This document shows, piece by piece, positions 50,702-58,780 of a stretch of 64,000 bases of DNA. A program made the position numbers and the translations under genes. The notes beneath the pieces are model-generated. The model was not told where the DNA came from. It did not search any database and was given only the letters and a program-made list of their open reading frames with translations. Location of the stretch: sequence record OQ174507.1; one strand, given 5' to 3'. The stretch is from Escherichia phage REP8. Every line of letters begins with the position of its first letter. Position 1 is the first letter of the stretch.

Positions 50702-51487
50702 ATGGGTATTGTAAAAATCATCAAAGGTGATATCTTTGACGCCTTTGATAAAGGTAAATTTGATATCATTGGTCATGGTTGCAACTGTATGAATTTCATG
50801 GGTGCAGGTATTGCAGCAACTATTTCTAAGCGTTATCCAAAAGTGTATGATACTGACACAGAAGTTTACCTGTTTGCAGGTGGCATTCGTCACAAACCCT
50901 GTGAAAATTTACTGGGTAATTTCTCCGTAGCACGTTTAAAACAAGGTCGTGTAGCTAACCTTTACACCCAACTCCATACTGGTAAAGATGCCCGATACAG
51001 CGCTTTAGAGTCATCTTTGAAGAAACTTAACAGATACTGTGAAGTTAACCAGTTGAAGAAGGTCGGTCTACCTATGATTGGTGCAGGTATCGGTGGACTT
51101 GACCCTCAAGCTGTCACAGTTATCATTAATCAGGTGATGAAGAGTGTAGATGTTTATCTGTATGTCTACGAGACAGAGATGTACAACGAGTTACACTCAG
51201 GTTGGAAGAACTACTGTGAACCAGAATACTTTGCAGGTGTAGCAGTGTTCACAGATAATGCAGTTACCCTCTTCAGACGAAGACAAGGTAAGGTACATCA
51301 AAGTAACCCTCCGGTTGAAAAGATGTCTCTAAGTAACGCTCTAGTTACCCACCTGTCGAAGAGCAGTCACAGGATTGCAGTAACATTTGGCAGTGATGCA
51401 GATGCTTACATCTATGCAAGAACTGATGAGGATATCGAGACGGTTTTCTCTTCACCAGAAGTTACCTTCTTAGACGCAAAGAACTAA
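50702..51487 (+). CDS. macro domain protein (ADP-ribose binding/processing)
   Basis: IKGDIFD...DIIGHGCNCMNFMGAGIA...LPMIGAGIGGL matches macro-domain Gly-rich loops. Confidence 0.55.
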   Translation: MGIVKIIKGDIFDAFDKGKFDIIGHGCNCMNFMGAGIAATISKRYPKVYDTDTEVYLFAGGIRHKPCENLLGNFSVARLKQGRVANLYTQLHTGKDARYSALESSLKKLNRYCEVNQLKKVGLPMIGAGIGGLDPQAVTVIINQVMKSVDVYLYVYETEMYNELHSGWKNYCEPEYFAGVAVFTDNAVTLFRRRQGKVHQSNPPVEKMSLSNALVTHLSKSSHRIAVTFGSDADAYIYARTDEDIETVFSSPEVTFLDAKN

Positions 51488-51518
51488 GAAACTCTGTAAA
51501 ATATTCACAATAGACTAA

Positions 51519-51561
51519 GCCTTCCTTATCTGGGAAATCTTTCAGGTAAGGAGGGCTTTTT
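51519..51561 (+). terminator. intrinsic terminator
   Basis: 10-bp stem GCCTTCCTTA/TAAGGAGGGC followed by TTTTT. Confidence 0.4.
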
Positions 51562-51738
51562 CATTTCAGGATTGTGCAGGTAGATTTCTGTAGAGAAATC
51601 TGTAGAGAGAATTTTGAACTCCAAAGAGAAAATTCATTTTCAAACTGTGCAGGTAATCTCCAAAGAGCTTTTTCATTTTCAAAACGTGCAGAGAAAAATC
51701 AGGTCGGGCAAGAAAAATCATTTTCGAATTGTGCAGGT
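51559..51738. repeat. four ~23-bp imperfect direct repeats (iteron-like)
   Basis: TTCATTT(T)C...TGTGCAGGTA at ~51562, 51633, 51672 and 51714. Confidence 0.5.
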
Positions 51739-51915
51739 AGGTGGGTGCAGGTGGGGATGTCGCCATTTCTCACAAGGCTACCACATCTGAAAAGAAAAGT
51801 CAACAGAAAAATTTGTAGCGGATTGAAAAATAATTCTTGATTGTAGTTCTGTTTTGTGGTAGTCGCGTGCGCCCGTTTCATTACATTTTTGCCAAAAATA
51901 TTTTTAAAATTTTTA

Positions 51916-51944
51916 TTGACTCCTCGAACGGGTTTTTATAGTAT
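51916..51944 (+). promoter_or_regulatory. cassette promoter 1 (sigma70-like) with downstream 5'UTR hairpin and SD
   Basis: TTGACT-N17-TAGTAT; hairpin GGGGAGG...CTTCCCC 51955-51974; AGGAG 51996-52000; ATG 52009. Confidence 0.5.
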
Positions 51945-52008
51945 TTGCATCAACGGGGAGGAAATGACTTCCCCACTAAATAAAACCCTTAAACTAGGAG
52001 ATTCTAAA

Positions 52009-52392
52009 ATGGCATATCGTGCACCTAAATTCATCAATAAAGACAACTTCCGCAACGCACTGGAAAAATCACTTGATGAGAATTTTACAGGTCAGATTAT
52101 TGTTGTTCACGCATATAATTTTAAGTATGATATTAACGGGAACAGAATCAACCATTACACGGCAACCATGTTAGATGGTGCGCTATCAAGTGAAAAAGCT
52201 GTACTGAATGCACTTGCTGGACGTGGTAAAAACCTGATAAAATGCAATAAGAGACGTTATCAGGGCGGCGCATATGGTTACGATGACGCTGTTTATCATC
52301 TTGAGAATATGGGCTATTCAGTGGAAAAAGCTGGAGTGTCTCAAATAATCGGCAGTGACGGCTATGTGACAATATTCAAAATTAACAAATAA
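52009..52392 (+). CDS. hypothetical early protein
   Basis: Start placed at ATG after SD; the ORF-track N-terminal extension reads through the cassette. Confidence 0.35.
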   Translation: MAYRAPKFINKDNFRNALEKSLDENFTGQIIVVHAYNFKYDINGNRINHYTATMLDGALSSEKAVLNALAGRGKNLIKCNKRRYQGGAYGYDDAVYHLENMGYSVEKAGVSQIIGSDGYVTIFKINK

Positions 52393-52397
52393 AGTAC

Positions 52398-52426
52398 TTT
52401 ACAAGGGGTTTATAGTTCGATAAAGT
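52398..52426 (+). promoter_or_regulatory. cassette promoter 2 with stem-loop spanning the spacer
   Basis: TTTACA-N17-TAAAGT; GGGGTTTA (52405-52412) pairs with TAAACCCC (52426-52433). Confidence 0.5.
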
Positions 52427-52477
52427 AAACCCCAGATAAAGAGCTTTACCGCTAAATCCTAGACTGGAGATTCTAAA

Positions 52478-52774
52478 ATGAAATTATCGAATAACGTTCG
52501 TGAAAATCTAAGCAAATTACTCAATAAAATCAATTTTATTGAGACCTCAAGAAATACTCATGAGGTTATGGAATGGATACACGGGAAAATAAATGGTCGT
52601 CGTGTAGTAATTTGCTTATGGAATAGTTGCAGGGAGTATAAAAAACCTGTCTTACAAATTAATATTTATGACGATACTTTTAAAAGCCCAGTAAAGTCTA
52701 AAAGTGACTTATTAGAATCTTATGAGATAACTTTAAATGGCAAGGTATCACGTAAAGAGGAAACACCATGTTAA
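52478..52774 (+). CDS. hypothetical early protein
   Basis: ORF after cassette with GGAGA SD. Confidence 0.35.
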   Translation: MKLSNNVRENLSKLLNKINFIETSRNTHEVMEWIHGKINGRRVVICLWNSCREYKKPVLQINIYDDTFKSPVKSKSDLLESYEITLNGKVSRKEETPC

Positions 52775-53100
52775 TGATGGGGACAACTGCAATCATCGCC
52801 ATTATAGCACTTTATAAGGCATATAAAGCCTATAATCTGGCAAGTAAGGCAATCACGCAGCAGGTTAATAATAGCCTTGTAGAAAGCTTTCTAGGGCGTT
52901 TAAGTGATGAGCAAATAAAGCGGCTAGAGATGAGCTTCAGATATAAAGCGAAAACCTATCAGATAAGTGACATATTCAAAGATGATTTTCAGCTTGTCGA
53001 TGATTATAATGCTCTGATAAATGCTTTAAATATCAGTGACTTAAAAGACTACTACGCTGTAATTGTTCAAGAACTGAGCAAACGAAAACAAAATGCTTGA
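52768..53100 (+). CDS. hypothetical membrane protein
   Basis: N-terminal TM helix. Confidence 0.3.
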   Translation: MLMMGTTAIIAIIALYKAYKAYNLASKAITQQVNNSLVESFLGRLSDEQIKRLEMSFRYKAKTYQISDIFKDDFQLVDDYNALINALNISDLKDYYAVIVQELSKRKQNA

Positions 53101-53125
53101 CACTGGTTTTTAAGTAGGTTAAATT
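53097..53125 (+). promoter_or_regulatory. cassette promoter 3
   Basis: TTGACA-N17-TAAATT; 5'UTR hairpin GGGGG...CCCCC; AGGAGA SD. Confidence 0.55.
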
Positions 53126-53187
53126 ACACATCAACGGGGGCGGTAAACCCCCCACTAATTAAAACCCTTAAACTAGGAGATTCTAAA

Positions 53188-53460
53188 ATGTATACTACTA
53201 ACAACGGTCGCACCTTAAACGTAACCCTGCGCCACTATGTAAACGGGGTAATGCACTTCGAGGATTTACAAGCTGAACAACATATCTTGGATTGGCAACT
53301 TGCAGGATTCCAAAAAACTGCTACCGGATACGGGAAAAAGATTCCAACTAGTTGGAAAGTATACTACGAAGGACGTTTGCGCAGAATTTATCAGGATGTT
53401 TACAGCAATAGCGCAACAAGTTACATCATGGTAAAAGGTAAAAAATTGCACTTAGTGTAA
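53188..53460 (+). CDS. hypothetical early protein
   Basis: ORF after cassette. Confidence 0.35.
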   Translation: MYTTNNGRTLNVTLRHYVNGVMHFEDLQAEQHILDWQLAGFQKTATGYGKKIPTSWKVYYEGRLRRIYQDVYSNSATSYIMVKGKKLHLV

Positions 53461-53465
53461 AGTAC

Positions 53466-53494
53466 TTTACAAGGTGCTTATAGTTCGATATAGT
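53466..53494 (+). promoter_or_regulatory. cassette promoter 4 with stem-loop
   Basis: TTTACA-N17-TATAGT; GGTGCTTA...TAAGCACC inverted repeat. Confidence 0.55.
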
Positions 53495-53545
53495 AAGCAC
53501 CAGATAAAGAGCTTTATCACTAAATCCTAAATTGGAGATTCAAAA

Positions 53546-53950
53546 ATGGCTATTAATAACCGTGATTTATTAATCTTAAAAGCACGTTTGACCGTTAACC
53601 GGATTAATGTTATTACGTCATCAGCACCAGACGAGACACTGCAAAACATTATCGGGAAGATTCAAAGTGTTATCTTAGACGTTGAAAACGTGAAAAACTC
53701 ATTAACTGACGTTGCAGCAGGTATCACGCTAGACGGTGCACAATACGAAATGGCTGACATGTTGGGCAAATCTAAGGTAATGAATAAAGAGCTTGATTTA
53801 AAAATGTTCAGATTCGCTGTGAAAGTGTGGCTATCTGTTGAGTATGATGCTAATTATGCAATCGCTGACTTTTTCGCCACTTGGTTGCAGCGTAATTTGA
53901 CAAATCACGATTTTCGCAATATCTGCGATGCAATTTATGCAGAACTTTAA
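53546..53950 (+). CDS. hypothetical early protein
   Basis: ORF after cassette. Confidence 0.35.
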   Translation: MAINNRDLLILKARLTVNRINVITSSAPDETLQNIIGKIQSVILDVENVKNSLTDVAAGITLDGAQYEMADMLGKSKVMNKELDLKMFRFAVKVWLSVEYDANYAIADFFATWLQRNLTNHDFRNICDAIYAEL

Positions 53951-53958
53951 AAATTTTC

Positions 53959-53987
53959 TTGACACTGGTTTTTAGATAGATTAAATT
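53959..53987 (+). promoter_or_regulatory. cassette promoter 5
   Basis: TTGACA-N17-TAAATT; 5'UTR hairpin; SD. Confidence 0.55.
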
Positions 53988-54051
53988 ACACATCAACGGG
54001 GAGGAAATGACTTCCCCACTAAGTAAAACCCTTAAACTAGGAGATTCAAAA

Positions 54052-54255
54052 ATGGCTATTATTAACGGTTTAAACATTGAAACAACGCACATCAAAGATA
54101 TTAAAGTTGGTGATGTGGTTCTCTTTCACGGCGTAGAAAAAACCGTCACGGCGAAAGATATTACAGAGGACTCCTTCATGGGTCGGTCGCTCTTCGGTGA
54201 TTCTTATTGCTTAGGTTACCGTGCAGTTTTAAAAGTTGTCAAAAATAACAAATAA
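54052..54255 (+). CDS. hypothetical early protein (67 aa)
   Basis: Start placed at ATG after SD. Confidence 0.3.
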   Translation: MAIINGLNIETTHIKDIKVGDVVLFHGVEKTVTAKDITEDSFMGRSLFGDSYCLGYRAVLKVVKNNK

Positions 54256-54260
54256 AGTAC

Positions 54261-54289
54261 TTTACAAGGGGTTTATAGTTCGATAAAGT
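54261..54289 (+). promoter_or_regulatory. cassette promoter 6 with stem-loop
   Basis: TTTACA-N17-TAAAGT; near-identical to cassette 2. Confidence 0.5.
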
Positions 54290-54342
54290 AAACCCCAGAT
54301 AAAGAGCTTTACCACTAAATCCTTAAACTAGGAGATTCAAAA

Positions 54343-54885
54343 ATGAAATGCTTCCACGGTACTACTCAAGAAAACTTCATCAACCTGATTAATAACGGTG
54401 ATAAGCCATCAGGTGCATGGAATTGTTCGGATATGGATGGGAATTTTTACGTTTATCCAGAAAATAAAATCTATGGCGACGATGCGGAAGAGATAGCATC
54501 TGAAGGTATCCAGCAAGCGTTAGGCAATGCCGCTATCACCGCAGCTTTCCAGATGAAAACTCAAAACATTGTTATCTTGGAACTTGATATTCCAGAAGAT
54601 GAGTTAAACGATGATTACTCTTGTGATAATATGGCGAACGTGGCAAGTTTTACAGAGTATTTCGATTTAAAATGGATTAAAAAGGTTTATACCACTGAAT
54701 TTAATGCTATGTTTTCACCATTTTGTCTGCCTTCACTGGATAACCCAAATATGAATTATCTTGATGAGACATTAGAACTACTTGCCAAAAGCGTTCAACA
54801 GTCCGACAGTATTCAGGTTTTTTGTGACATCATGGACACACTGACGGGAAACATCGCAGAAGAGGATTTAAAGAGCTTTTTTTAA
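54343..54885 (+). CDS. hypothetical early protein (acidic)
   Basis: ORF after cassette. Confidence 0.35.
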   Translation: MKCFHGTTQENFINLINNGDKPSGAWNCSDMDGNFYVYPENKIYGDDAEEIASEGIQQALGNAAITAAFQMKTQNIVILELDIPEDELNDDYSCDNMANVASFTEYFDLKWIKKVYTTEFNAMFSPFCLPSLDNPNMNYLDETLELLAKSVQQSDSIQVFCDIMDTLTGNIAEEDLKSFF

Positions 54886-54927
54886 AAACCTATACAATCA
54901 CCTTATAAACACTATTCAGCACCTTGT

Positions 54928-55185
54928 GTGTGCTTCTGGAGTGCTTTAATCATGCTTACAACCGTTTACCTCATCCTTTCCATGTGTAATGGTCATTCAT
55001 GCGATTTCGAAGAGCTTGGGGAGTTTACAGGGAGTAAAGAAAACGCTATTCAGGTTTGTCAGATAGAAAGGCAAGACTACCCCGCCAGTGATGATATAAA
55101 ATGTTACTTTAAGACAGAAGACAGCGACGGCGTTTATTTTGACAGTGTTGACGGGCAAGATGAAATTATCATTGATAAAGACTAG
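54928..55185 (+). CDS. hypothetical protein with N-terminal hydrophobic segment
   Basis: ORF; no cassette upstream. Confidence 0.3.
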   Translation: MCFWSALIMLTTVYLILSMCNGHSCDFEELGEFTGSKENAIQVCQIERQDYPASDDIKCYFKTEDSDGVYFDSVDGQDEIIIDKD

Positions 55186-55211
55186 ACAAGCCGGATAAAA
55201 GCAAGTAAATT
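55183..55211 (+). promoter_or_regulatory. cassette promoter 7
   Basis: TAGACA-N17-TAAATT; 5'UTR hairpin; SD. Confidence 0.4.
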
Positions 55212-55277
55212 ACTAATCAACGGGGAGGTAATGAACTTCCCCACTAAGTAAAACCCTTAAACTAGGAGATTCAAAAG

Positions 55278-55619
55278 ATGGCTTATGTAACTGTAATTAC
55301 CAATAAACCGGATTCATCTTGGTCAACTCAAGTAAGCGATAAGATGACACCTATGCAGTGCCTAAAATACTTTGAGCAATGGAATAAAGGCGAGGAAACA
55401 AGTCCCTTCCAAGTGATGCAGATTATCCATGTAAGTAATGAAGGGACTAAAACGGTTTTAAATAGTGAGTACTATGCAACCAGATTTGAGACGAGATGTA
55501 AAACGATGAAGCTATTACGTGAATCCGGCTATTCTCATATTGCCGCACTAATCTGGGATGACCTGCTAAAAAATCAGCGTATCAGCTATGTAAAACATGA
55601 AAAAATATTCATCAGTTAA
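55278..55619 (+). CDS. hypothetical early protein
   Basis: ORF after cassette. Confidence 0.35.
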   Translation: MAYVTVITNKPDSSWSTQVSDKMTPMQCLKYFEQWNKGEETSPFQVMQIIHVSNEGTKTVLNSEYYATRFETRCKTMKLLRESGYSHIAALIWDDLLKNQRISYVKHEKIFIS

Positions 55620-55652
55620 TCAATAACTTACAAAAAACTTTTAAAAAAAGTG

Positions 55653-55681
55653 TTGACAATGCCCCTTGACATTGGTAATGT
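55653..55681 (+). promoter_or_regulatory. sigma70-like promoter
   Basis: TTGACA-N17-TAATGT. Confidence 0.4.
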
Positions 55682-55750
55682 TGTTCGAGGGGGTTTATCT
55701 TAAAGGGATTCACTTAAAAGATTTCTTTAAAGATAAGCTTAAAAAATTGC

Positions 55751-55779
55751 TTGCAATCAGCTATCAAAACAAGTAAATT
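55751..55779 (+). promoter_or_regulatory. cassette promoter 8
   Basis: TTGCAA-N17-TAAATT; 5'UTR hairpin; SD. Confidence 0.5.
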
Positions 55780-55844
55780 ACTAATCAACGGGGAGGAAAT
55801 GAACTTCCCCACTAAGTAAAGTCCTTAAACTAGGAGATTCTAAA

Positions 55845-56375
55845 ATGAACAAATTTCAAGCTATCAACTATATTCGTTCCGTCAATGTCATGTCAAAGCC
55901 TGTAAAAGATACGTATGAATTTCGTTGTAATGGTGTACACTTCGCAACAATCACCAAATCAGAAAACGGAACTTATTACGTCCATCGTCGTAATGTTGCA
56001 ACCGTTGTTGTCTCTCATTTTATGCAAGCTGTCGCGGAACTTCTCCCGATGTTTTTGGGTCTTTACTTGGATGAGTGTAAAAACGTTCAAAATCACGTTA
56101 AAAACCTTTTAAATAGTTATAAAATGGCTTACGAGCGTTCTATCAAGCACTTAAACAAGTTTTACAACGCACCTGAAAATACTGTATCAATGGCATATGC
56201 TGTAAATGGTGAGGCGGTGAGTCTCTTTGAAGTGGAAAAAATTAACCTGTATGATTTACGCCCTCACGGTTACACTAAGACACTGGGAGAAGGTTTAACG
56301 TTCAATATCAAGAACTTAGAAAAAACTTTAAAAGATATTGAAAAAGACATTGACGAGACCATCAAAAATCTGTAA
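55845..56375 (+). CDS. hypothetical early protein
   Basis: ORF after cassette. Confidence 0.35.
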   Translation: MNKFQAINYIRSVNVMSKPVKDTYEFRCNGVHFATITKSENGTYYVHRRNVATVVVSHFMQAVAELLPMFLGLYLDECKNVQNHVKNLLNSYKMAYERSIKHLNKFYNAPENTVSMAYAVNGEAVSLFEVEKINLYDLRPHGYTKTLGEGLTFNIKNLEKTLKDIEKDIDETIKNL

Positions 56376-56378
56376 ATT
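56350..56378 (+). promoter_or_regulatory. cassette promoter 9
   Basis: TTGACG-N17-TAAATT overlapping 3' end of upstream gene; 5'UTR hairpin; SD. Confidence 0.5.
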
Positions 56379-56443
56379 ACTAATCAACGGGGAGGAAATG
56401 AACTTCCCCACTAAGTAAAACCCTTAAACTAGGAGTTATCAAG

Positions 56444-56707
56444 ATGGAAAACGTAGAATTAATCACGCTCTTACAAATCGCAACCGACAAAGAAAACGTA
56501 GCATTATTACACCGCATTGAAAGTGATTTGTTCAATGGTGAAATCATCAAAGAATCTTATGAAGTTGTCGGATTCAAAGATGGTAAAGCATTTGGATTCT
56601 TTGACCTCGACAAAGGCAACGCTGTTACAAATTACGATGTTTTATCTTGTGAGATTCTTACAAAATACAACGAAAAAAGGCTTGCAACATACGCCAACAT
56701 GCAGTAA
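56444..56707 (+). CDS. hypothetical early protein
   Basis: ORF after cassette. Confidence 0.35.
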   Translation: MENVELITLLQIATDKENVALLHRIESDLFNGEIIKESYEVVGFKDGKAFGFFDLDKGNAVTNYDVLSCEILTKYNEKRLATYANMQ

Positions 56708-56710
56708 ATT
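56682..56710 (+). promoter_or_regulatory. cassette promoter 10
   Basis: TTGCAA-N17-TAAATT; 5'UTR hairpin GGGGAGG...CCTCCCT with compensatory changes. Confidence 0.5.
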
Positions 56711-56775
56711 ACTAATCAACGGGGAGGTAATAGCCTCCCTACTAAGTAAAGTCCTTAAACTAGGAGATTCAAAAA

Positions 56776-57024
56776 ATGGCAACTATCCGCGCAACTGTCA
56801 ATGCTTATGGCTGTTATACTCTGGACGTTAAATTTGATATTGGTGGGACTGATGAATGTTTTTCCTTAGTGAAAACAGTTATCAAGCAAGTTATCCCAGA
56901 ATATAACCCTGCTGATGACTTCTGGAAAGATGCCGTAAAAGAGGCCATAAACGATGAGCACCACTATCATTACTGGGGTGATTTGATTGTCTCCCTGTAC
57001 TACAATAAACAAGGTTACAACTAA
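56776..57024 (+). CDS. hypothetical early protein
   Basis: ORF after cassette. Confidence 0.35.
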   Translation: MATIRATVNAYGCYTLDVKFDIGGTDECFSLVKTVIKQVIPEYNPADDFWKDAVKEAINDEHHYHYWGDLIVSLYYNKQGYN

Positions 57025-57063
57025 TCGACGCAGCGGGGATAAATAACCCCAGATACCCCTAAA

Positions 57064-57089
57064 AGCACCTATTTAAAGGTGCTTTTTTA
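57064..57089 (+). terminator. intrinsic terminator
   Basis: AGCACCT-loop-AGGTGCT followed by TTTTTT. Confidence 0.55.
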
Positions 57090-57099
57090 CGTCTATTGA

Positions 57100-58780
57100 A
57101 TCCTTATACAATCCCTTTCCCTCACCTTTCCAGAATCTATCCACTGATTCGATAGAACCTATCTCATACCTTAAAAAGCAATAACTCTATAGTCTACTCT
57201 ATAACCTTTTATCAAATCAACTTAAATAAAAGCCAATAACCCCAGAAAGGGGATGGCCTCTTATTGGTATTGTTACCAATCCCTAAAACGCTCTATAAAG
57301 CTCTATAACAGCCTTATCAACCTAACTTAAGGGATTGCATTAACCAACCTTAAAAAGCTCTTTACAAGGCTTTATAGAGGCTTAAAAGAATCTTATAAGG
57401 TTATAAGCTTTATTATCTCGTTAGCTATCTTGTGAACTACTAAAAGTGCTATGAGATAGGAATCTATGAGGGTAATTCATTACCTGAATCACTATCGAAT
57501 CCTATTGTTATTGTCTTAAAAGTATGTTATAGGGTGCTATAAAGTTACTTTGAAGTAGTTTAAAAGTTACGTAAATGCTAGCCACCTTAACATTTTCTTA
57601 ACAATTTCTTAACAATCCCTACATAGTTATGCTTTTAAGGCACTTGTTAGCAACTTGTTAGCACCTTGTTAAATCTCTGTTAAAACCACGTAAAAGCCTT
57701 GTAAGAACCTTTGACATAGCCTTTAAAGCACCTGTAAAGCACTATAAAGAGCTATCCATACAGTTGAGGGGTAAATACTAGGGAGAGCCTTAAAAGAGCC
57801 TATAAAGAGCTATAGAGAGCTTTTAAAAGGTATGTTTAAGAAATCACTAAGAGGGAAAGGGAACGATAAGAAAAGAGGTAGTGACCATGTTAATAGCTTG
57901 TTAAAAAGGTTAAACACTTGTTAGGAACTTGTTAATTATCTAACTGGTATTGTTACCAATCCCTAACAAAATAACCCTTAAAAATTAACCTGTTAGCTCT
58001 TGTTAGTCATCTATTAAGATTCTGTAAAGCCTATTCAGTACTTGTTAAAAGACTGTTACCCTCTTGTTAAAACTGTTAGAAATCTATTAAGACCCTTAAA
58101 GAGATGTTAAAAGGTTGTAAGAACTGTTGAGAGATTGTTAATGATATTTTAAAATTTTGCAAAGGGGATGTTAAGGAGCTGTTAAGGGCTACCAAGCAGA
58201 TATACATCCTCAACAGATATTTTTGAGTTCCTTCAAAGACCCTAAAAAAATGACTTGATAGTCCTATTTTATAAAAATTTTAAAATTCTGAATAATTACC
58301 TATACAGTCTTTCTAAAATACAGGTAGAAACAGGCTTATAAGATACCTTGTTAGTACCGTGTTAGACCTTGTGAGATAAGGTCTGTAAAGATATTCCTGT
58401 TAAGTTTGTTAAAACAGTCTATATAGAGGCTTAGTAATACCTAGTGAACACCTATAGAGGGTATCATAGCTGACATAGAGATTAAGAGGTGTATAGGAGC
58501 TTCTAAGAGGGTATATAGGGATGGTTAAGGTGATTGTATAGGTTGTTAAGAAGACTTGTTAGAGGGCTTGTTAGAGGGCTTGTTAGAAGGATTATACAGA
58601 GGGGCTATTAAGACCACTAGGTAGTTACTAAGATACTATATAGTACTATATAACTATATAGAGAGTAAGATTAAAAAGGTTGTTAAGAAGGATAGATATT
58701 TTGTTCACATATGATGGTGACCCAGAGGTTGGGACAACCGATAAAATTTTATAAAAAATATAAATTTCGTAAATTTTACT
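57100..58780. repeat. ORF-free AT-rich repeat-dense region (candidate origin, packaging or regulatory region)
   Basis: No ORF >=60 aa in any frame; many TTGTTA(A/G) motifs; 13-bp tandem repeat x3 at 58555-58590; identical 22-bp repeat at 57265-57286 and 57945-57966. Confidence 0.5.

Follow-up and report, generated by a model that had tools for sequence, protein, structure and literature searches.

The array at 51916-56778 of Escherichia phage REP8 raises the question of what the repeated sequences in front of its small genes do. We analyzed a window of 64,000 nucleotides (64 kb; record OQ174507.1), which belongs to a Felixounavirus and is 99.9% identical to Escherichia phages REP9/REP10. According to our main reading, which we consider probable, the repeats are self-contained promoter-hairpin-Shine-Dalgarno (SD) cassettes that also serve as recombination patches. 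Comparing sequences was enough to show their anatomy, their conservation pattern, the conserved pairing and the location of gene junctions within them, and every part of the sequence-only reading that such data can address was supported.

Cassettes and genes of the array

The sequence-only reading had counted about ten cassettes of two types before nearly every small gene. We found exactly ten, seven of type A and three of type B, all on the + strand, and each runs up to the start codon (ATG) of one of the small ORFs. Ten of the 12 array ORFs begin at a cassette, the exceptions being j and h. The SD-module core CCTTAAACTAGGAGATTC matches 8 times in the 64-kb window at ≤3 mismatches (0.10 expected by chance), the type-A core TAAATTACWMATCAACGGGG 6 times (0.02 expected) and the 56-nt type-B core 3 times (0 expected), with no match to any of the three outside 51916-56775. 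Profile and covariance-model searches recovered the same copies and no further cassette of either type elsewhere in the 64 kb.

On the left, the array is bounded by an intrinsic terminator at 51517..51558 (+), for which the terminator scan reports a 19-bp stem with a T-run behind it (-29.9 kcal/mol, z -6.1). It closes the upstream operon, which includes the macro-domain gene i (50702-51487), and is the counterpart of Felix O1 t13 (PMC3185647). The right boundary is the intrinsic terminator AAAAGCACCT..AGGTGCTTTTTT at 57061..57092 (+; -14.7 kcal/mol, z -5.2); the terminal-repeat homologue (57579-58195) lies about 490 bp further on. This terminator corresponds to Felix O1 t23 (PMC3185647), and the annotation of ASO1A places a terminator at the corresponding site. 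Terminator scan and folding found no canonical terminator between these two. The array is thus a one-direction cluster of small accessory genes between two strong terminators, by the physical end of the genome.

All features that follow lie on the + strand. Cassette A1 (51916..52011) has its -35 TTGACT at 51916-21, -10 TAGTAT at 51939-44, hairpin at 51955-51974, GGAG at 51997-52000 and ATG at 52009, where ORF n begins (127 aa, 52009..52392, phrog_4495). Cassette B1 (52390..52480) starts at the TAA stop codon of n and carries TTTACA (52398-403), TAAAGT (52421-26), a hairpin around this -10 (52405-52433), GGAG (52466-69) and the ATG (52478) of ORF b (98 aa, 52478-52774). ORF j (110 aa, 52768-53100), which lacks a cassette, shares 7 nt with b, and translation of the two is probably coupled. 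In A2 (53097..53190), the -35 TTGACA (53097-102) includes the TGA stop of j and is followed by TAAATT (53120-25), a hairpin with the stem allele GGGGG/CCCCC (53136-53153), GGAG (53176-79) and the ATG (53188) of ORF a (90 aa, 53188..53460, phrog_3436). B2 (53458..53548; TTTACA 53466-71, TATAGT 53489-94, hairpin 53473-53501, GGAG 53534-37, ATG 53546) leads into ORF c (134 aa, 53546..53950, phrog_4327), and A3 (53959..54054; TTGACA 53959-64, TAAATT 53982-87, hairpin 53998-54017, GGAG 54040-43, ATG 54052) into ORF a' (67 aa, 54052..54255, phrog_3623). We rejected a' as a paralog of a, since the two show no similarity.

B3 (54253..54345; TTTACA 54261-66, TAAAGT 54284-89, hairpin 54268-54296, GGAG 54331-34, ATG 54343) precedes ORF g (180 aa, 54343-54885), an ortholog of Bas63 bas63_0107. 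ORF h (77 aa, 54952-55185) follows 66 nt after g with its own GGAG and no cassette. The TAG stop codon of h opens the -35 TAGACA (55183-88) of A4 (55183..55280), which continues with TAAATT (55206-11), a hairpin (55222-55242), GGAG (55265-68) and the ATG (55278) of ORF d (113 aa, 55278..55619, phrog_4318). A5 (55751..55847; TTGCAA 55751-56, TAAATT 55774-79, hairpin 55790-55810, GGAG 55833-36, ATG 55845) serves ORF e (176 aa, 55845..56375, phrog_4725). The last two cassettes reach into the preceding genes: A6 (56350..56446) has its -35 TTGACG (56350-55) within e and a -10 TAAATT (56373-78) that opens with the TAA stop of e, then a hairpin (56389-56409), GGAG (56432-35) and the ATG (56444) of ORF k (87 aa, 56444..56707). 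Likewise, A7 (56682..56778) has TTGCAA (56682-87) within k, TAAATT (56705-10) whose TAA is the stop of k, the stem GGGGAGGT/GCCTCCCT (56721-56740), GGAG (56763-66) and the ATG (56776) of ORF f (82 aa, 56776..57024), the last array gene.

Between d and e lies an orphan element (55617..55752) that has neither SD nor ORF and is near-invariant in an alignment of three genera. It has an A-tract and, separated by a spacer of 17 nt, TTGACA (55653-58) and TAATGT (55676-81); a stem CCCCTTG/CGAGGGG (55662-55692) encloses the -10, and a further, long hairpin occupies 55691-55741 (-16.7 kcal/mol, z -4.5).

As the sequence-only reading had noted, the small genes have no recognisable domains: Pfam and PADLOC searches of the array ORFs gave no match, and the numbered PHROGs above, like all to which array ORFs belong, are of unknown function. 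The only related data point is Bas63 g107, the ortholog of an array ORF, which is reported to be of conditional importance with E. coli S17-1 as host (PMC11482910). That these are host-takeover or anti-defence genes is a guess.

Conserved hairpins and their possible roles

We collected 95 type-A and 80 type-B copies from 16 genomes of three Ounavirinae genera. Felixounavirus, Mooglevirus and Suspvirus carry 7-16 cassettes per genome, which in every case share one strand and sit in the same cluster, so the cassettes are conserved in close and distant relatives. Every copy folds into a GC hairpin; for type A this holds for 95/95 copies, with 87 at -8 kcal/mol or better. Position and pairing are retained in 37 distinct type-A and 41 distinct type-B sequences, which upholds a structural hairpin. 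The type-A hairpin starts 10 nt after the -10 in 89/93 copies. The type-B hairpin brackets the -10, as had been proposed, with a stem of 9 bp by RNAfold rather than the 8 bp first given.

The compensatory changes quoted in the sequence-only reading (GGGGAGG/CTTCCCC versus GGGGAGG/CCTCCCT) are one-sided G-U/G-C exchanges, so its covariation argument is weak as worded; true double-sided changes occur elsewhere, in type-B stems. In type A, 93.3% of cells are paired and 8 show double-sided changes, counts that lean towards structure because the covariance-model alignment was fitted to it. Aligned type-A copies score 0.090 for covariation versus 0.072 in shuffles (0/500 reach 0.090) and ≤0.059 in slid controls; the arms are runs of G and C, and swapped arms pair anyway in 32% of cases. 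The type-B stem is 97.6% paired, and its changes are of pairing-preserving kinds: C-G to U-G in 23 cells, C-G to U-A in 2 and G-C to U-A in 1. Its double-sided changes amount to 3/970 cells, all in the lineage of the REP8 window, where GGGGTTTA/TAAACCCC and, in B2 with its compensatory G-C to U-A change, GGTGCTTA/TAAGCACC stand against GGGGCTTA/TAAGCCCC in relatives. Covariation is therefore positive but modest, and the strict compensatory evidence is thin.

The two geometries suggest different roles. Given its offset of 10 nt from the -10, the type-A hairpin would lie 1-4 nt from the 5' end of a transcript started at the usual distance. Stems at the extreme 5' end, such as ompA-type 5' stem-loops, protect mRNAs from 5'-end-dependent decay. 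We infer that this is mainly what the type-A hairpin would do, and it should form in read-through RNA too. In type B, the predicted start is the A of the invariant CCAGATAAAG, just beyond the 3' arm. As the hairpin encloses the -10 and the start lies past its 3' arm, it could form only in RNA coming from upstream; it may serve the preceding gene as attenuator or as 3'-end protector, and shield the promoter from read-through. The attenuator role is suggested by analogy with the promoter early stem-loops (PeSLs) of RB49.

Alternatively, the hairpins of both types could above all be terminators or attenuators, as first proposed for PeSLs, in which case the type-A hairpin would throttle its own promoter. 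An RB49 PeSL stem-loop and the rrnB T1 terminator reduced lacZ expression to a similar extent (PMC2839356), and the annotators of ASO1A and KhF2, using WebGeSTer, named the hairpins rho-independent terminators. With ten promoters and no canonical terminator between the boundaries, some damping of cumulative read-through is also plausible. However, no cassette hairpin is followed by a U-tract and the scan flags none on the + strand, so they are not canonical intrinsic terminators. A strong terminator between a type-A promoter and its own gene would moreover defeat the promoter, and the constant 10-nt distance sets the stem at the 5' extremity of the transcript. We regard this explanation as possible though unlikely.

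The palindromes and the invariant blocks beside them (ATCAAC ahead of the stem in type A, CAGATAAAG following it in type B) might instead be DNA-binding sites, for a repressor ending the early phase or a recombination factor, with RNA structure as a by-product. A promoter alone would not require such strong conservation of these blocks, and published accounts of Felix O1-like phages do not explain how they time their transcription (PMC3185647; PMC4690856). Yet G-U pairs are common and tolerated: they are the majority at one type-A pair (40 of 52 cells, versus 12 G-C) and occur in 23 type-B cells. Being asymmetric in duplex DNA, such pairs argue for selection on sense-strand RNA structure rather than on a DNA cruciform. 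The stem alleles are also diverse (GGGGAGGG, GGGAGG, GGGGC, GGGGG, GGGA) while position and pairing are kept, unlike a sequence-specific site. We think this explanation improbable in its own right, although it is compatible with the promoter-hairpin-SD reading and both could hold.

Promoter signature

According to the promoter-hairpin-SD reading, nearly every array gene would have its own expression cassette of ~85-95 bp, starting at or over the stop codon of the preceding gene and supplying an AT-rich stretch, a host sigma-70 promoter and the GC-rich hairpin, as well as a common A-rich leader in which a strong ribosome-binding site (GGAG) lies 8-10 nt ahead of the ATG. Across the 16 genomes, the constant elements are the -35 hexamer, the 17-nt spacer, a TAnnnT -10, GGAG and the AT-rich tract upstream; the remaining positions drift. 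A+T makes up 77% of the 25 nt preceding the -35, compared with 63 +/- 9% for the array. All 93 scored type-A copies have TAnnnT with a -35 matching at ≥4/6 positions exactly 17 nt upstream, and the -35 is retained even inside the preceding ORF or over its stop codon. The formula TTGACA-N17-TAAATT first given for type A holds for the spacer; the exact TTGACA occurs in only 2/7 REP8 copies, next to TTGACT, TAGACA, TTGCAA (twice) and TTGACG, and A1 departs from TAAATT. The 76 distinct type-B copies, drawn from 15 genomes, all have TTTACA; their -10 is invariant only at T1, A2 and T6, its inner bases being AAG, TCT, AGA, TGA, GGA, GTA, CCT and others.

Consensus match alone proves nothing here, since a generic promoter scan gave 34 promoter-like sites in the region, compared with 27.5 +/- 6.5 in shuffled sequence, and missed A5 and A7. 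The -10 hexamers match TATAAT at a mere 4/6 positions, and half of the ten -35 hexamers reach no more than 4-5/6. With TT[GT]ACN-N17-TAnnnT, 8 of the 22 + strand matches in the 64 kb lie in the 4.5-kb array region. The comparison supports sigma-70-type promoter signatures conserved exactly where function would require it. The cassettes would then be active, early promoters with starts at the predicted positions. A literature search turned up neither mapped transcription starts nor reporter or RNA-seq experiments for any Felix O1-like phage. In Felix O1 RT-PCR, tested array genes appear at 5 or 25 min and none late, half of them peaking at 25 rather than 5 min (PMC3185647).

It could be argued that only the 3' module matters, as an SAS-like repeat that boosts or co-regulates translation initiation, the hexamers being incidental AT-rich sequence. 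The Mordin genome paper calls CCAACAATCCTAAACTGGAGAATCTA, a 26-bp repeat in front of 8 genes, SAS-like (PMC4611695); neither GGAG nor the TAAACT-type leader varies in either type, and gene a in SME50 and ASO1A keeps the SD-bearing 3' module alone. This leaves unexplained the invariant TTTACA, a TAnnnT with free inner bases at a fixed 17-nt spacing, the AT-rich upstream stretch, -35 matches inside coding sequence and the hairpins, and we find it very unlikely.

Proposed gene shuffling and comparison with known systems

The 16 genomes show 13 different gene orders, and for four genes the preceding cassette is of type A or type B depending on the phage. As cassette-bounded gain and loss predicts, 7 gene presence/absence junctions fall within cassettes. 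In 5/7 junctions, the single cassette resembles one flanking cassette leftward and the other rightward. Felix O1, UAB_69 and Bas63 lack gene k, and the crossover points in the first two differ; the remaining junctions concern l+m, m, a'+g+h, y and u. B1 is itself chimeric: its left part resembles the cassette before gene l in relatives and its right part the SD/start of gene b. Derived hairpin alleles private to one genome fill 2-4 positions there (the window, adrianh, Mordin, Felix O1, wV8), while averaged over all copies, cassette likeness is barely higher within genomes (0.875) than between them (0.862-0.872).

Related phages thus appear to have gained and lost small genes by recombination at cassettes. 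These may act as homology patches because ~50-90 bp recur every few hundred bases in one orientation; recombination between them would delete, insert or swap gene-plus-cassette units and copy cassette alleles between positions. We give hardly any credence to neutral leftovers of segmental duplication or a small selfish REP-/MITE-like element without regulatory function, which would account for dispersed repeats with inverted-repeat cores and alleles copied within a genome but is largely refuted by conservation concentrated at functional positions and persistence in three genera at <50% nucleotide identity (PMC4611695), by the single orientation with the 3' end fixed at the ATG and the 5' end at a stop codon, and by mutually unrelated downstream ORFs of different PHROGs.

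Fragments of these cassettes were reported earlier as "direct repeats" in Felix O1 and wV8, as the SAS-like repeat of Mordin mentioned above and as promoter/terminator pairs in ASO1A. The likeness to T4-type PeSL cassettes proposed in the sequence-only reading is borne out: the layout fits the published description point by point (PMC2839356), and the REP8 cassettes match in 6/6 sequence-level features tested. The Felix O1-type cassettes sit in a subfamily unrelated to T4-type phages, and we detected no sequence similarity between them and T4-type PeSLs. This kind of cassette is therefore already known from T4-type phages and, in fragments, from Felix O1-like phages. In T4-type phages, recombination is described as moving gene-plus-cassette units, and we propose the same for the Felix O1 type.

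A single array of repeated cassettes

Ten cassettes were found on the + strand between 51916 and 56778, in agreement with the sequence-only reading, which had claimed about ten promoter, hairpin and Shine-Dalgarno (SD) units in front of small ORFs. Seven belong to type A (A1-A7) and three to type B (B1-B3), and each terminates at the ATG of an ORF of 67-180 aa. These counts are far above chance: within the 64 kb, the core of the SD module (the A-rich leader and GGAG common to both types) occurs 8 times for 0.10 expected, the type-A core 6 times for 0.02 expected and the 56-nt type-B core 3 times for 0 expected. All core repeats lie on the + strand at 51916-56775, and none occurs elsewhere in the 64 kb. 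Profile HMMs and a covariance model recovered the identical set of copies and no additional ones. As a feature, the cassette array is real. Among its ORFs (n, b, j, a, c, a', g, h, d, e, k and f, in this order), only j, which has a 7-nt overlap with b, and h, which lies 66 nt after g, are cassette-free.

From -35 to ATG, type A measures about 94 nt and consists of the -35, a 17-nt spacer, TAAATT, 10 nt (ACWMATCAAC) and a GC stem of 7-8 bp (-9.5 to -13.4 kcal/mol; consensus GGGGAGG(G)/(C)CTTCCCC, beginning 10 nt after the -10), followed by an A-rich linker, CCTTAAACTAGGAGATTC, 4-6 nt and the ATG. Its earlier description as TTGACA/TAAATT has to be corrected, as the exact TTGACA is present only in two type-A copies and the -10 of the first copy is TAGTAT. 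Type B is about 80 nt long, and the upstream stop codon TAA runs straight into AGTAC-TTTACA, lying immediately 5' of AGTACTTTACA in all type-B copies. Its 9-bp stem (GGGGTTTAT/ATAAACCCC), of the form GGGGYTTA/TAARCCCC, spans the spacer and the -10, with the -10 hexamer inside the loop. The invariant CAGATAAAGAGCTTTAC comes next, then the same SD module as in type A, CC(T)TAAAC/TT(A)GGAGATTC. GGAG stands 8-10 nt 5' of the ATG in 10/10 cassettes. Like the promoter-early stem-loop cassettes (PeSLs) of T4-type phages, the cassettes extend from the upstream stop codon as far as the SD and start codon of the gene that follows. The preceding stop codon lies within the -35 in A2 (TGA) and A4 (TAG), and in A6 and A7 the -10 begins with it.

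The genome is that of a Felixounavirus. A stretch of 5.3 kb around the array is 99.9% identical to Escherichia phages REP9 and REP10, and the array region shows 80-91% identity to some 250 other Felix O1-like myoviruses (Ounavirinae). One Staphylococcus-labelled and one Campylobacter-labelled record also match this region and are probably mislabelled or contaminated entries. Strong intrinsic terminators flank the array at 51517-51558 (-29.9 kcal/mol) on the left and 57061-57092 (-14.7 kcal/mol) on the right, and both are of the canonical kind. Further right, 57579-58195 is a homologue (85% identity) of the 618-bp direct terminal repeat that the record of Salmonella phage UAB_69 annotates. The physical genome end probably lies there, about 550 bp past the end of the array. 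Short tandem motifs (CACTTGTTAGCAACTTGTTA) are found within this homologue of the terminal repeat.

Directly 5' of the array lies a macro-domain gene (50702-51487, 261 aa; PF01661, E 6e-7), annotated as 'phosphatase' in related records. Such homologues are common in T4-type and other large phages, and we rejected this gene as an anchor to distant Ounavirinae because its matches are mostly to those unrelated phages. Between the left terminator and the first cassette (51562-51736), an 18-nt motif, CATTTY..GTGCAG(G), is present four times at a spacing of 39-73 nt and is followed by GGTGGGTGCAGGTGGGG. These copies could form a protein-binding array. In the wV8 record, a small gene 13 is annotated in the matching stretch.

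Parts of the array have been recorded before. Felix O1 was described with 57-bp and 39-bp 'direct repeats' placed outside its promoter list (PMC3185647), Mordin with a 26-bp repeat likened to start-associated sequences (SAS) (PMC4611695), the wV8 record holds features DR_1 to DR_9, and the ASO1A record has separate promoter and 'terminator' features. In the literature searched, which leaves most subscription journals outside, we found no paper that combines these repeats into cassettes, distinguishes type A from type B or connects them with gene turnover.

Conservation of promoter elements and hairpins

The homologous region was gathered from 15 other genomes (12 Felixounavirus, 2 Mooglevirus and 1 Suspvirus), and 14 of them were scanned together with the window. 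Every scanned genome carries 7-16 cassettes, on a single strand and in a single cluster, so the presence of the cassettes in relatives was borne out. In type B, TTTACA is invariant and TAnnnT follows at N17 in 76/76 distinct copies. Only T1, A2 and T6 of this hexamer are fixed, and at least a dozen variants of the three inner bases exist, as would be expected if it works as a sigma-70 -10 element. In type A, all 93 scored copies have TAnnnT (TAAATT 70, TAAAGT 11, TAGTAT 7, TAATAT 4, TATAGT 1) and, exactly 17 nt 5' of it, a -35 match of at least 4/6, even where this falls inside the preceding coding sequence. The 25 nt 5' of the -35 contain 77.6% A+T in type A (n=95) and 76.8% in type B (n=80), compared to 62.8 +/- 9.2% for random 25-mers from the array. 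A relaxed promoter pattern gave 22 matches on the + strand of the 64 kb, 8 of them inside 4.5 kb of the array.

A generic promoter scan gave no enrichment over shuffles and missed two cassettes; the case for promoters therefore stands on the conservation pattern and not on a consensus score. It is from this pattern that we infer promoter activity of the cassettes. Searching the literature, we found neither reporter fusions nor transcript mapping for Felix O1-like phages. The top score of the generic scan is a near-consensus candidate antisense promoter within ORF e (55867-55896, - strand; TTGACA, 18 nt, TATAGT), with 11/12 matches. We also considered, by eye only, a T4-style middle promoter composed of a MotA-box-like GCTTTA and the TAAAYT of the SD module. 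It was dropped because its start site would fall past the SD and because Felix O1-like phages are reported to lack proteins that modify host RNA polymerase (PMC3185647).

Some hints on timing come from Felix O1, whose gene numbers were mapped to the array through the repeats listed for this phage. By RT-PCR, its genes 16, 20, 21 and 22 (m, c, d and e) peak at 5 min and its genes 17, 19 and 23 (b, a and f) at 25 min, and none is late (PMC3185647). Both cassette types are present in both timing classes. The cassettes propose a concrete answer to the question of early transcription posed by two genome papers on the Felix O1 group (PMC3185647; PMC4690856), in the form of ten predicted start sites in this phage and as many as sixteen in related ones.

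The sequence-only reading had also claimed that the hairpin is kept by compensatory changes. Our results showed that pairing is indeed conserved, but the examples quoted as compensatory are one-sided G-U/G-C changes only. All 95 type-A copies fold at one position in spite of 37 distinct sequences, with a folding energy of -8 kcal/mol or better in 87 of them. The stem alleles include GGGGAGGG/CCTTCCCC, GGGAGG/CCTCCC, GGGGC/GCCCC, GGGGG/CCCCC, GGGGGA/TCCCCC and GGGA/TCCC. As the MAFFT alignment of type A was out of register in the stem, it was replaced by per-sequence folding and by alignment of 91 matches with a covariance model built from seven equal-length copies. In this alignment, which is biased towards the structure because it was fitted to it, 93.3% of cells are paired, with double-sided changes at two pairs (8 cells). 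The covariation score is 0.090, compared to 0.072 in shuffles (0/500 reach 0.090), and slid partners give at most 0.059. Swapping arms (-10.2 vs -7.7 kcal/mol) discriminates only moderately, because all arms are G-runs or C-runs.

In type B, 97.6% of the stem is paired and all changes preserve pairing (C-G to U-G 23, C-G to U-A 2, G-C to U-A 1); the double-sided ones are confined to the window's own copies. At one type-A pair, 40/52 cells are G-U. The frequency of G-U pairs fits an RNA structure of the sense strand rather than a cruciform of the DNA or a site bound by a protein in a sequence-specific way. From these alignments, conservation of the hairpin structure is well supported, and the signal of strict covariation is positive but modest.

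The type-A stem begins 10 nt after the -10 in 89/93 copies. A transcript starting 7-9 nt after the -10 would thus carry the hairpin 1-4 nt from its 5' end and leave the SD free. Known 5'-terminal stem-loop stabilisers have a similar hairpin geometry, and by this likeness the type-A hairpin may protect the mRNA from 5'-end-dependent decay. In type B, the predicted start is the A of the invariant CCAGATAAAG, just beyond the 3' arm, so the hairpin would form only in RNA arriving from upstream. There it may serve the preceding gene at its 3' end, by attenuation, pausing or the blocking of exonucleases, and would also keep read-through away from the promoter. For attenuation the precedent is RB49, in which a PeSL-type stem-loop cut reporter expression as strongly as rrnB T1 (PMC2839356).

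Canonical intrinsic (rho-independent) termination is a different proposal, which the cassette hairpins do not fit because they have no U-tract: type A continues with ACTAAGTAAA and type B with AGATAAAG, and a terminator scan of the + strand flagged none of them. Rfam 15 gave no covariance-model match at E <= 1 in 51400-58600 on both strands. For the 5' end of the type-B transcript, a weak AU hairpin (GAUAAA/UUUAYC) was considered and rejected, with a mismatch in 60/76 copies and no covariation. Many type-A loops (51955-56740) contain GGAGG-N2-ATG, which opens either six codons, M-N/T-F-P-T-K-stop, or an N-terminal extension in frame with the main ORF, depending on the allele. A leader peptide was rejected, as the ATG and its frame are not conserved among alleles and are absent from A2, A7 and the Mooglevirus allele; the mini-ORF is therefore probably incidental. 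ORF prediction is misled by this ATG, and the longer ORFs in the Felix O1 annotation are an example.

One further element, without SD or ORF, occupies the gap between d and e (55617-55752) and is more conserved than the cassettes themselves across Felixounavirus, Mooglevirus and Suspvirus. Its parts are an A-tract, a pair of overlapping TTGACA boxes, a -10 of the form TAnnnT between the arms of a CCCCTTG/CGAGGGG stem, and a 48-nt 3' hairpin (-16.7 kcal/mol, z -4.5), in which the window shows one compensatory A-U to U-A flip. Directly 3' of it, Mooglevirus and Suspvirus have an inserted extra cassette with a 46-aa hydrophobic ORF. The element could encode a small RNA, or serve e, k and f as a strong upstream promoter.

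Gene turnover within the array

Among 16 genomes we counted 13 different orders of array genes, with families o, r, n, l, m, u, a', s, y, k, t, C and others variably present. Families n, d, s and o are preceded by type A in some phages and by type B in others. The idea that genes are gained and lost between cassettes held in the comparison of relatives: 7/7 presence/absence junctions examined fall inside cassettes, and 5/7 leave a single cassette, chimeric or between the flanking genes (k in Felix O1 and in UAB_69, l+m, m, and a'+g+h).

Gene k is missing in Felix O1, UAB_69 and Bas63. In Felix O1 and UAB_69, the left part of the sole e-f cassette matches the e-side cassette and its right part the f-side cassette, each phage having its own crossover point; the single e-f cassette of Bas63 has yet another stem allele. 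The window lacks l and m, and its B1 is a chimera in which the cassette found before l in relatives continues as the SD and start of b. Chimeric cassettes like B1 were likewise left in wV8, which lacks m, and in Felix O1, which lacks a', g and h. In wV8, the type-A cassette that other phages have before d is followed by y, and d stands behind a type B. In SME50, a duplicated SD module flanks gene u. On these sequence comparisons, the evidence for cassette-mediated gene turnover is unusually clean.

Some derived stem alleles are private to one genome and present at several positions, such as GGGGTTTA/TAAACCCC before b and g in the window; adrianh, Mordin, Felix O1 and wV8 also have private alleles of this kind. 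They suggest copying between cassettes and are the one observation that points to gene conversion. Global concerted evolution was rejected, as cassettes within a genome are only marginally more alike than cassettes of different genomes.

A bolder proposal, which we regard as rather unlikely, is that the array is an integron-like gene-capture platform at the genome end that works independently of a recombinase. Recombination between directly repeated cassettes would loop out gene-plus-cassette units as mini-circles, with the GC hairpins as recombination hot spots, and the circles would re-insert at any cassette of a co-infecting Felixounavirus, Mooglevirus or Suspvirus. A captured gene would bring its promoter, an mRNA-protecting hairpin and a ribosome-binding site, and the insulating type-B hairpin inside the next promoter would make units transcriptionally independent.

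As had been proposed, the small genes show no recognisable domains: Pfam gave no match for the twelve array ORFs, PADLOC gave none for the ten searched, and the ten ORFs searched in PHROGs all fall in families of unknown function. A role in host takeover or anti-defence is a reasonable guess. Overall, what could be compared at the sequence level lends support to the interpretation given by the sequence-only reading. ORFs a (90 aa) and a' (67 aa) were considered as paralogs and rejected, as BLASTP found no similarity and their link in single-linkage clustering came from translated cassette leaders.

ORF g (54343-54885, 180 aa, with an N-terminal FHGT) is the ortholog of Bas63 bas63_0107 and has homologs only in Ounavirinae. 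If the numbering of the PhageMaP preprint follows locus tags, bas63_0107 is the 'g107' reported there as more or conditionally important on E. coli S17-1 and as slightly similar to an NAD-binding RNA 2'-phosphotransferase domain (PMC11482910). Most Bas63 genes are described as non-essential, a statement at genome level that gives no per-gene values for the array genes (PMC11482910). For an ADP-ribosyltransferase-like enzyme, suggested by the FHGT, Foldseek against the PDB gave nothing below E = 0.8 with a poor AlphaFold model (pLDDT 57), and pertussis toxin S1 and TreTu appeared only at noise level.

Felix O1-type phages are used in Salmonella typing, phage therapy and biocontrol. The array marks variable small ORFs that are the best candidates for host-range, takeover and anti-defence functions, and its cassettes are ready-made compact expression units.

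Comparison with known systems

PeSLs are known from the T4-type phages RB49/phi1, PST/T4 and nt-1/KVP40, and are defined by a stop codon, an AT-rich stretch, sigma-70 -35/-10 elements, a polyG/polyC stem-loop, an SD and an ATG (PMC2839356; PMC4122927). Their stem-loop lies between the -35 and -10, overlaps the -10 or lies just past it; they cluster in hyperplastic regions and at indel junctions, and promoter activity, terminator activity and mini-circles have been demonstrated for them (PMC2839356; PMC4122927). The layout had been likened to PeSLs from the sequence alone, and we found all six of the sequence-level features. The array cassettes are composite and intergenic, with an AT-rich stretch, a sigma-70-like -35/N17/-10, a GGGG...CCCC stem-loop, an SD and an ATG. 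They are clustered among small non-conserved ORFs, indel and replacement junctions fall in them and leave chimeric cassettes, and one 5-kb array of small variable ORFs forms the hyperplastic region.

The two systems also differ. The array genome belongs to the Ounavirinae and not to the T4-type phages. A blastn search with the type-A cassette returned 246 records, and among the matches listed all are Ounavirinae; the genomes matched are about the same set as for the whole array region. By taxonomy and sequence, this Felixounavirus array thus stands outside the known PeSLs. In contrast to the loose PeSL motif, the cassettes form two discrete, highly conserved families with one common SD module, and all copies lie in one array beside the genome end. 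In addition, the type-A stem follows the predicted start site and would therefore belong to the mRNA.

The announcement of the Mordin genome likened its repeat to SAS (PMC4611695). The likeness lies in a short conserved block that contains an SD and stands directly 5' of the start codons of a subset of genes. As phage group, host and sequence are all different, this is analogy and not membership. In cluster K mycobacteriophages, the related ESAS are reportedly preceded by an inverted repeat (Pope et al. in 2011). To our knowledge, SAS have not been described with -35/-10 promoter hexamers, and we know of no gene-shuffling role shown for them.

Bacillus phage SPO1 is said to carry a host-takeover module in its terminal redundancy, with documented early timing (attributed to Stewart et al. 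in 1998). Both clusters are dense groups of small genes near a genome terminus, mostly of unknown function; the SPO1 genes are early and many have their own strong host-type promoter and strong ribosome-binding site, a layout predicted for the array too. Unlike the array, the SPO1 regulatory sites are not near-identical repeated hairpin cassettes. The SPO1 genes are part of the terminal repeat, while the array stops about 550 bp short of its terminal-repeat homologue, and early timing is documented for SPO1 but only hinted at for the array. For a single part of the cassette, the ompA 5' UTR reportedly contains a 5'-terminal stem-loop that stabilises the mRNA (Emory, Bouvet and Belasco, in 1992). 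Type A resembles it by a stable hairpin a few nt from the 5' end and an unoccluded SD, a functional analogy only, as the type-A start sites are predicted. In halovirus HF2, two classes of short intergenic repeats spread along the genome carry promoters in reporter assays (PMC8707807). HF2 differs from the array in being an archaeal virus with archaeal promoters, and its repeats are not described with a hairpin/SD architecture.

Judged by their sequences, the Ounavirinae cassettes would work like PeSLs, fit the structural definition of PeSLs and form an independent lineage. The PeSL idea is thereby extended beyond T4-type phages to the Ounavirinae, and the class of mechanism is not new. PeSL-type cassettes and chimeric gain/loss junctions in a subfamily unrelated to T4 suggest generality: repeated promoter–stem-loop units may be recurrent in virulent phages and allow a gene region to turn over fast without disturbing its neighbours.
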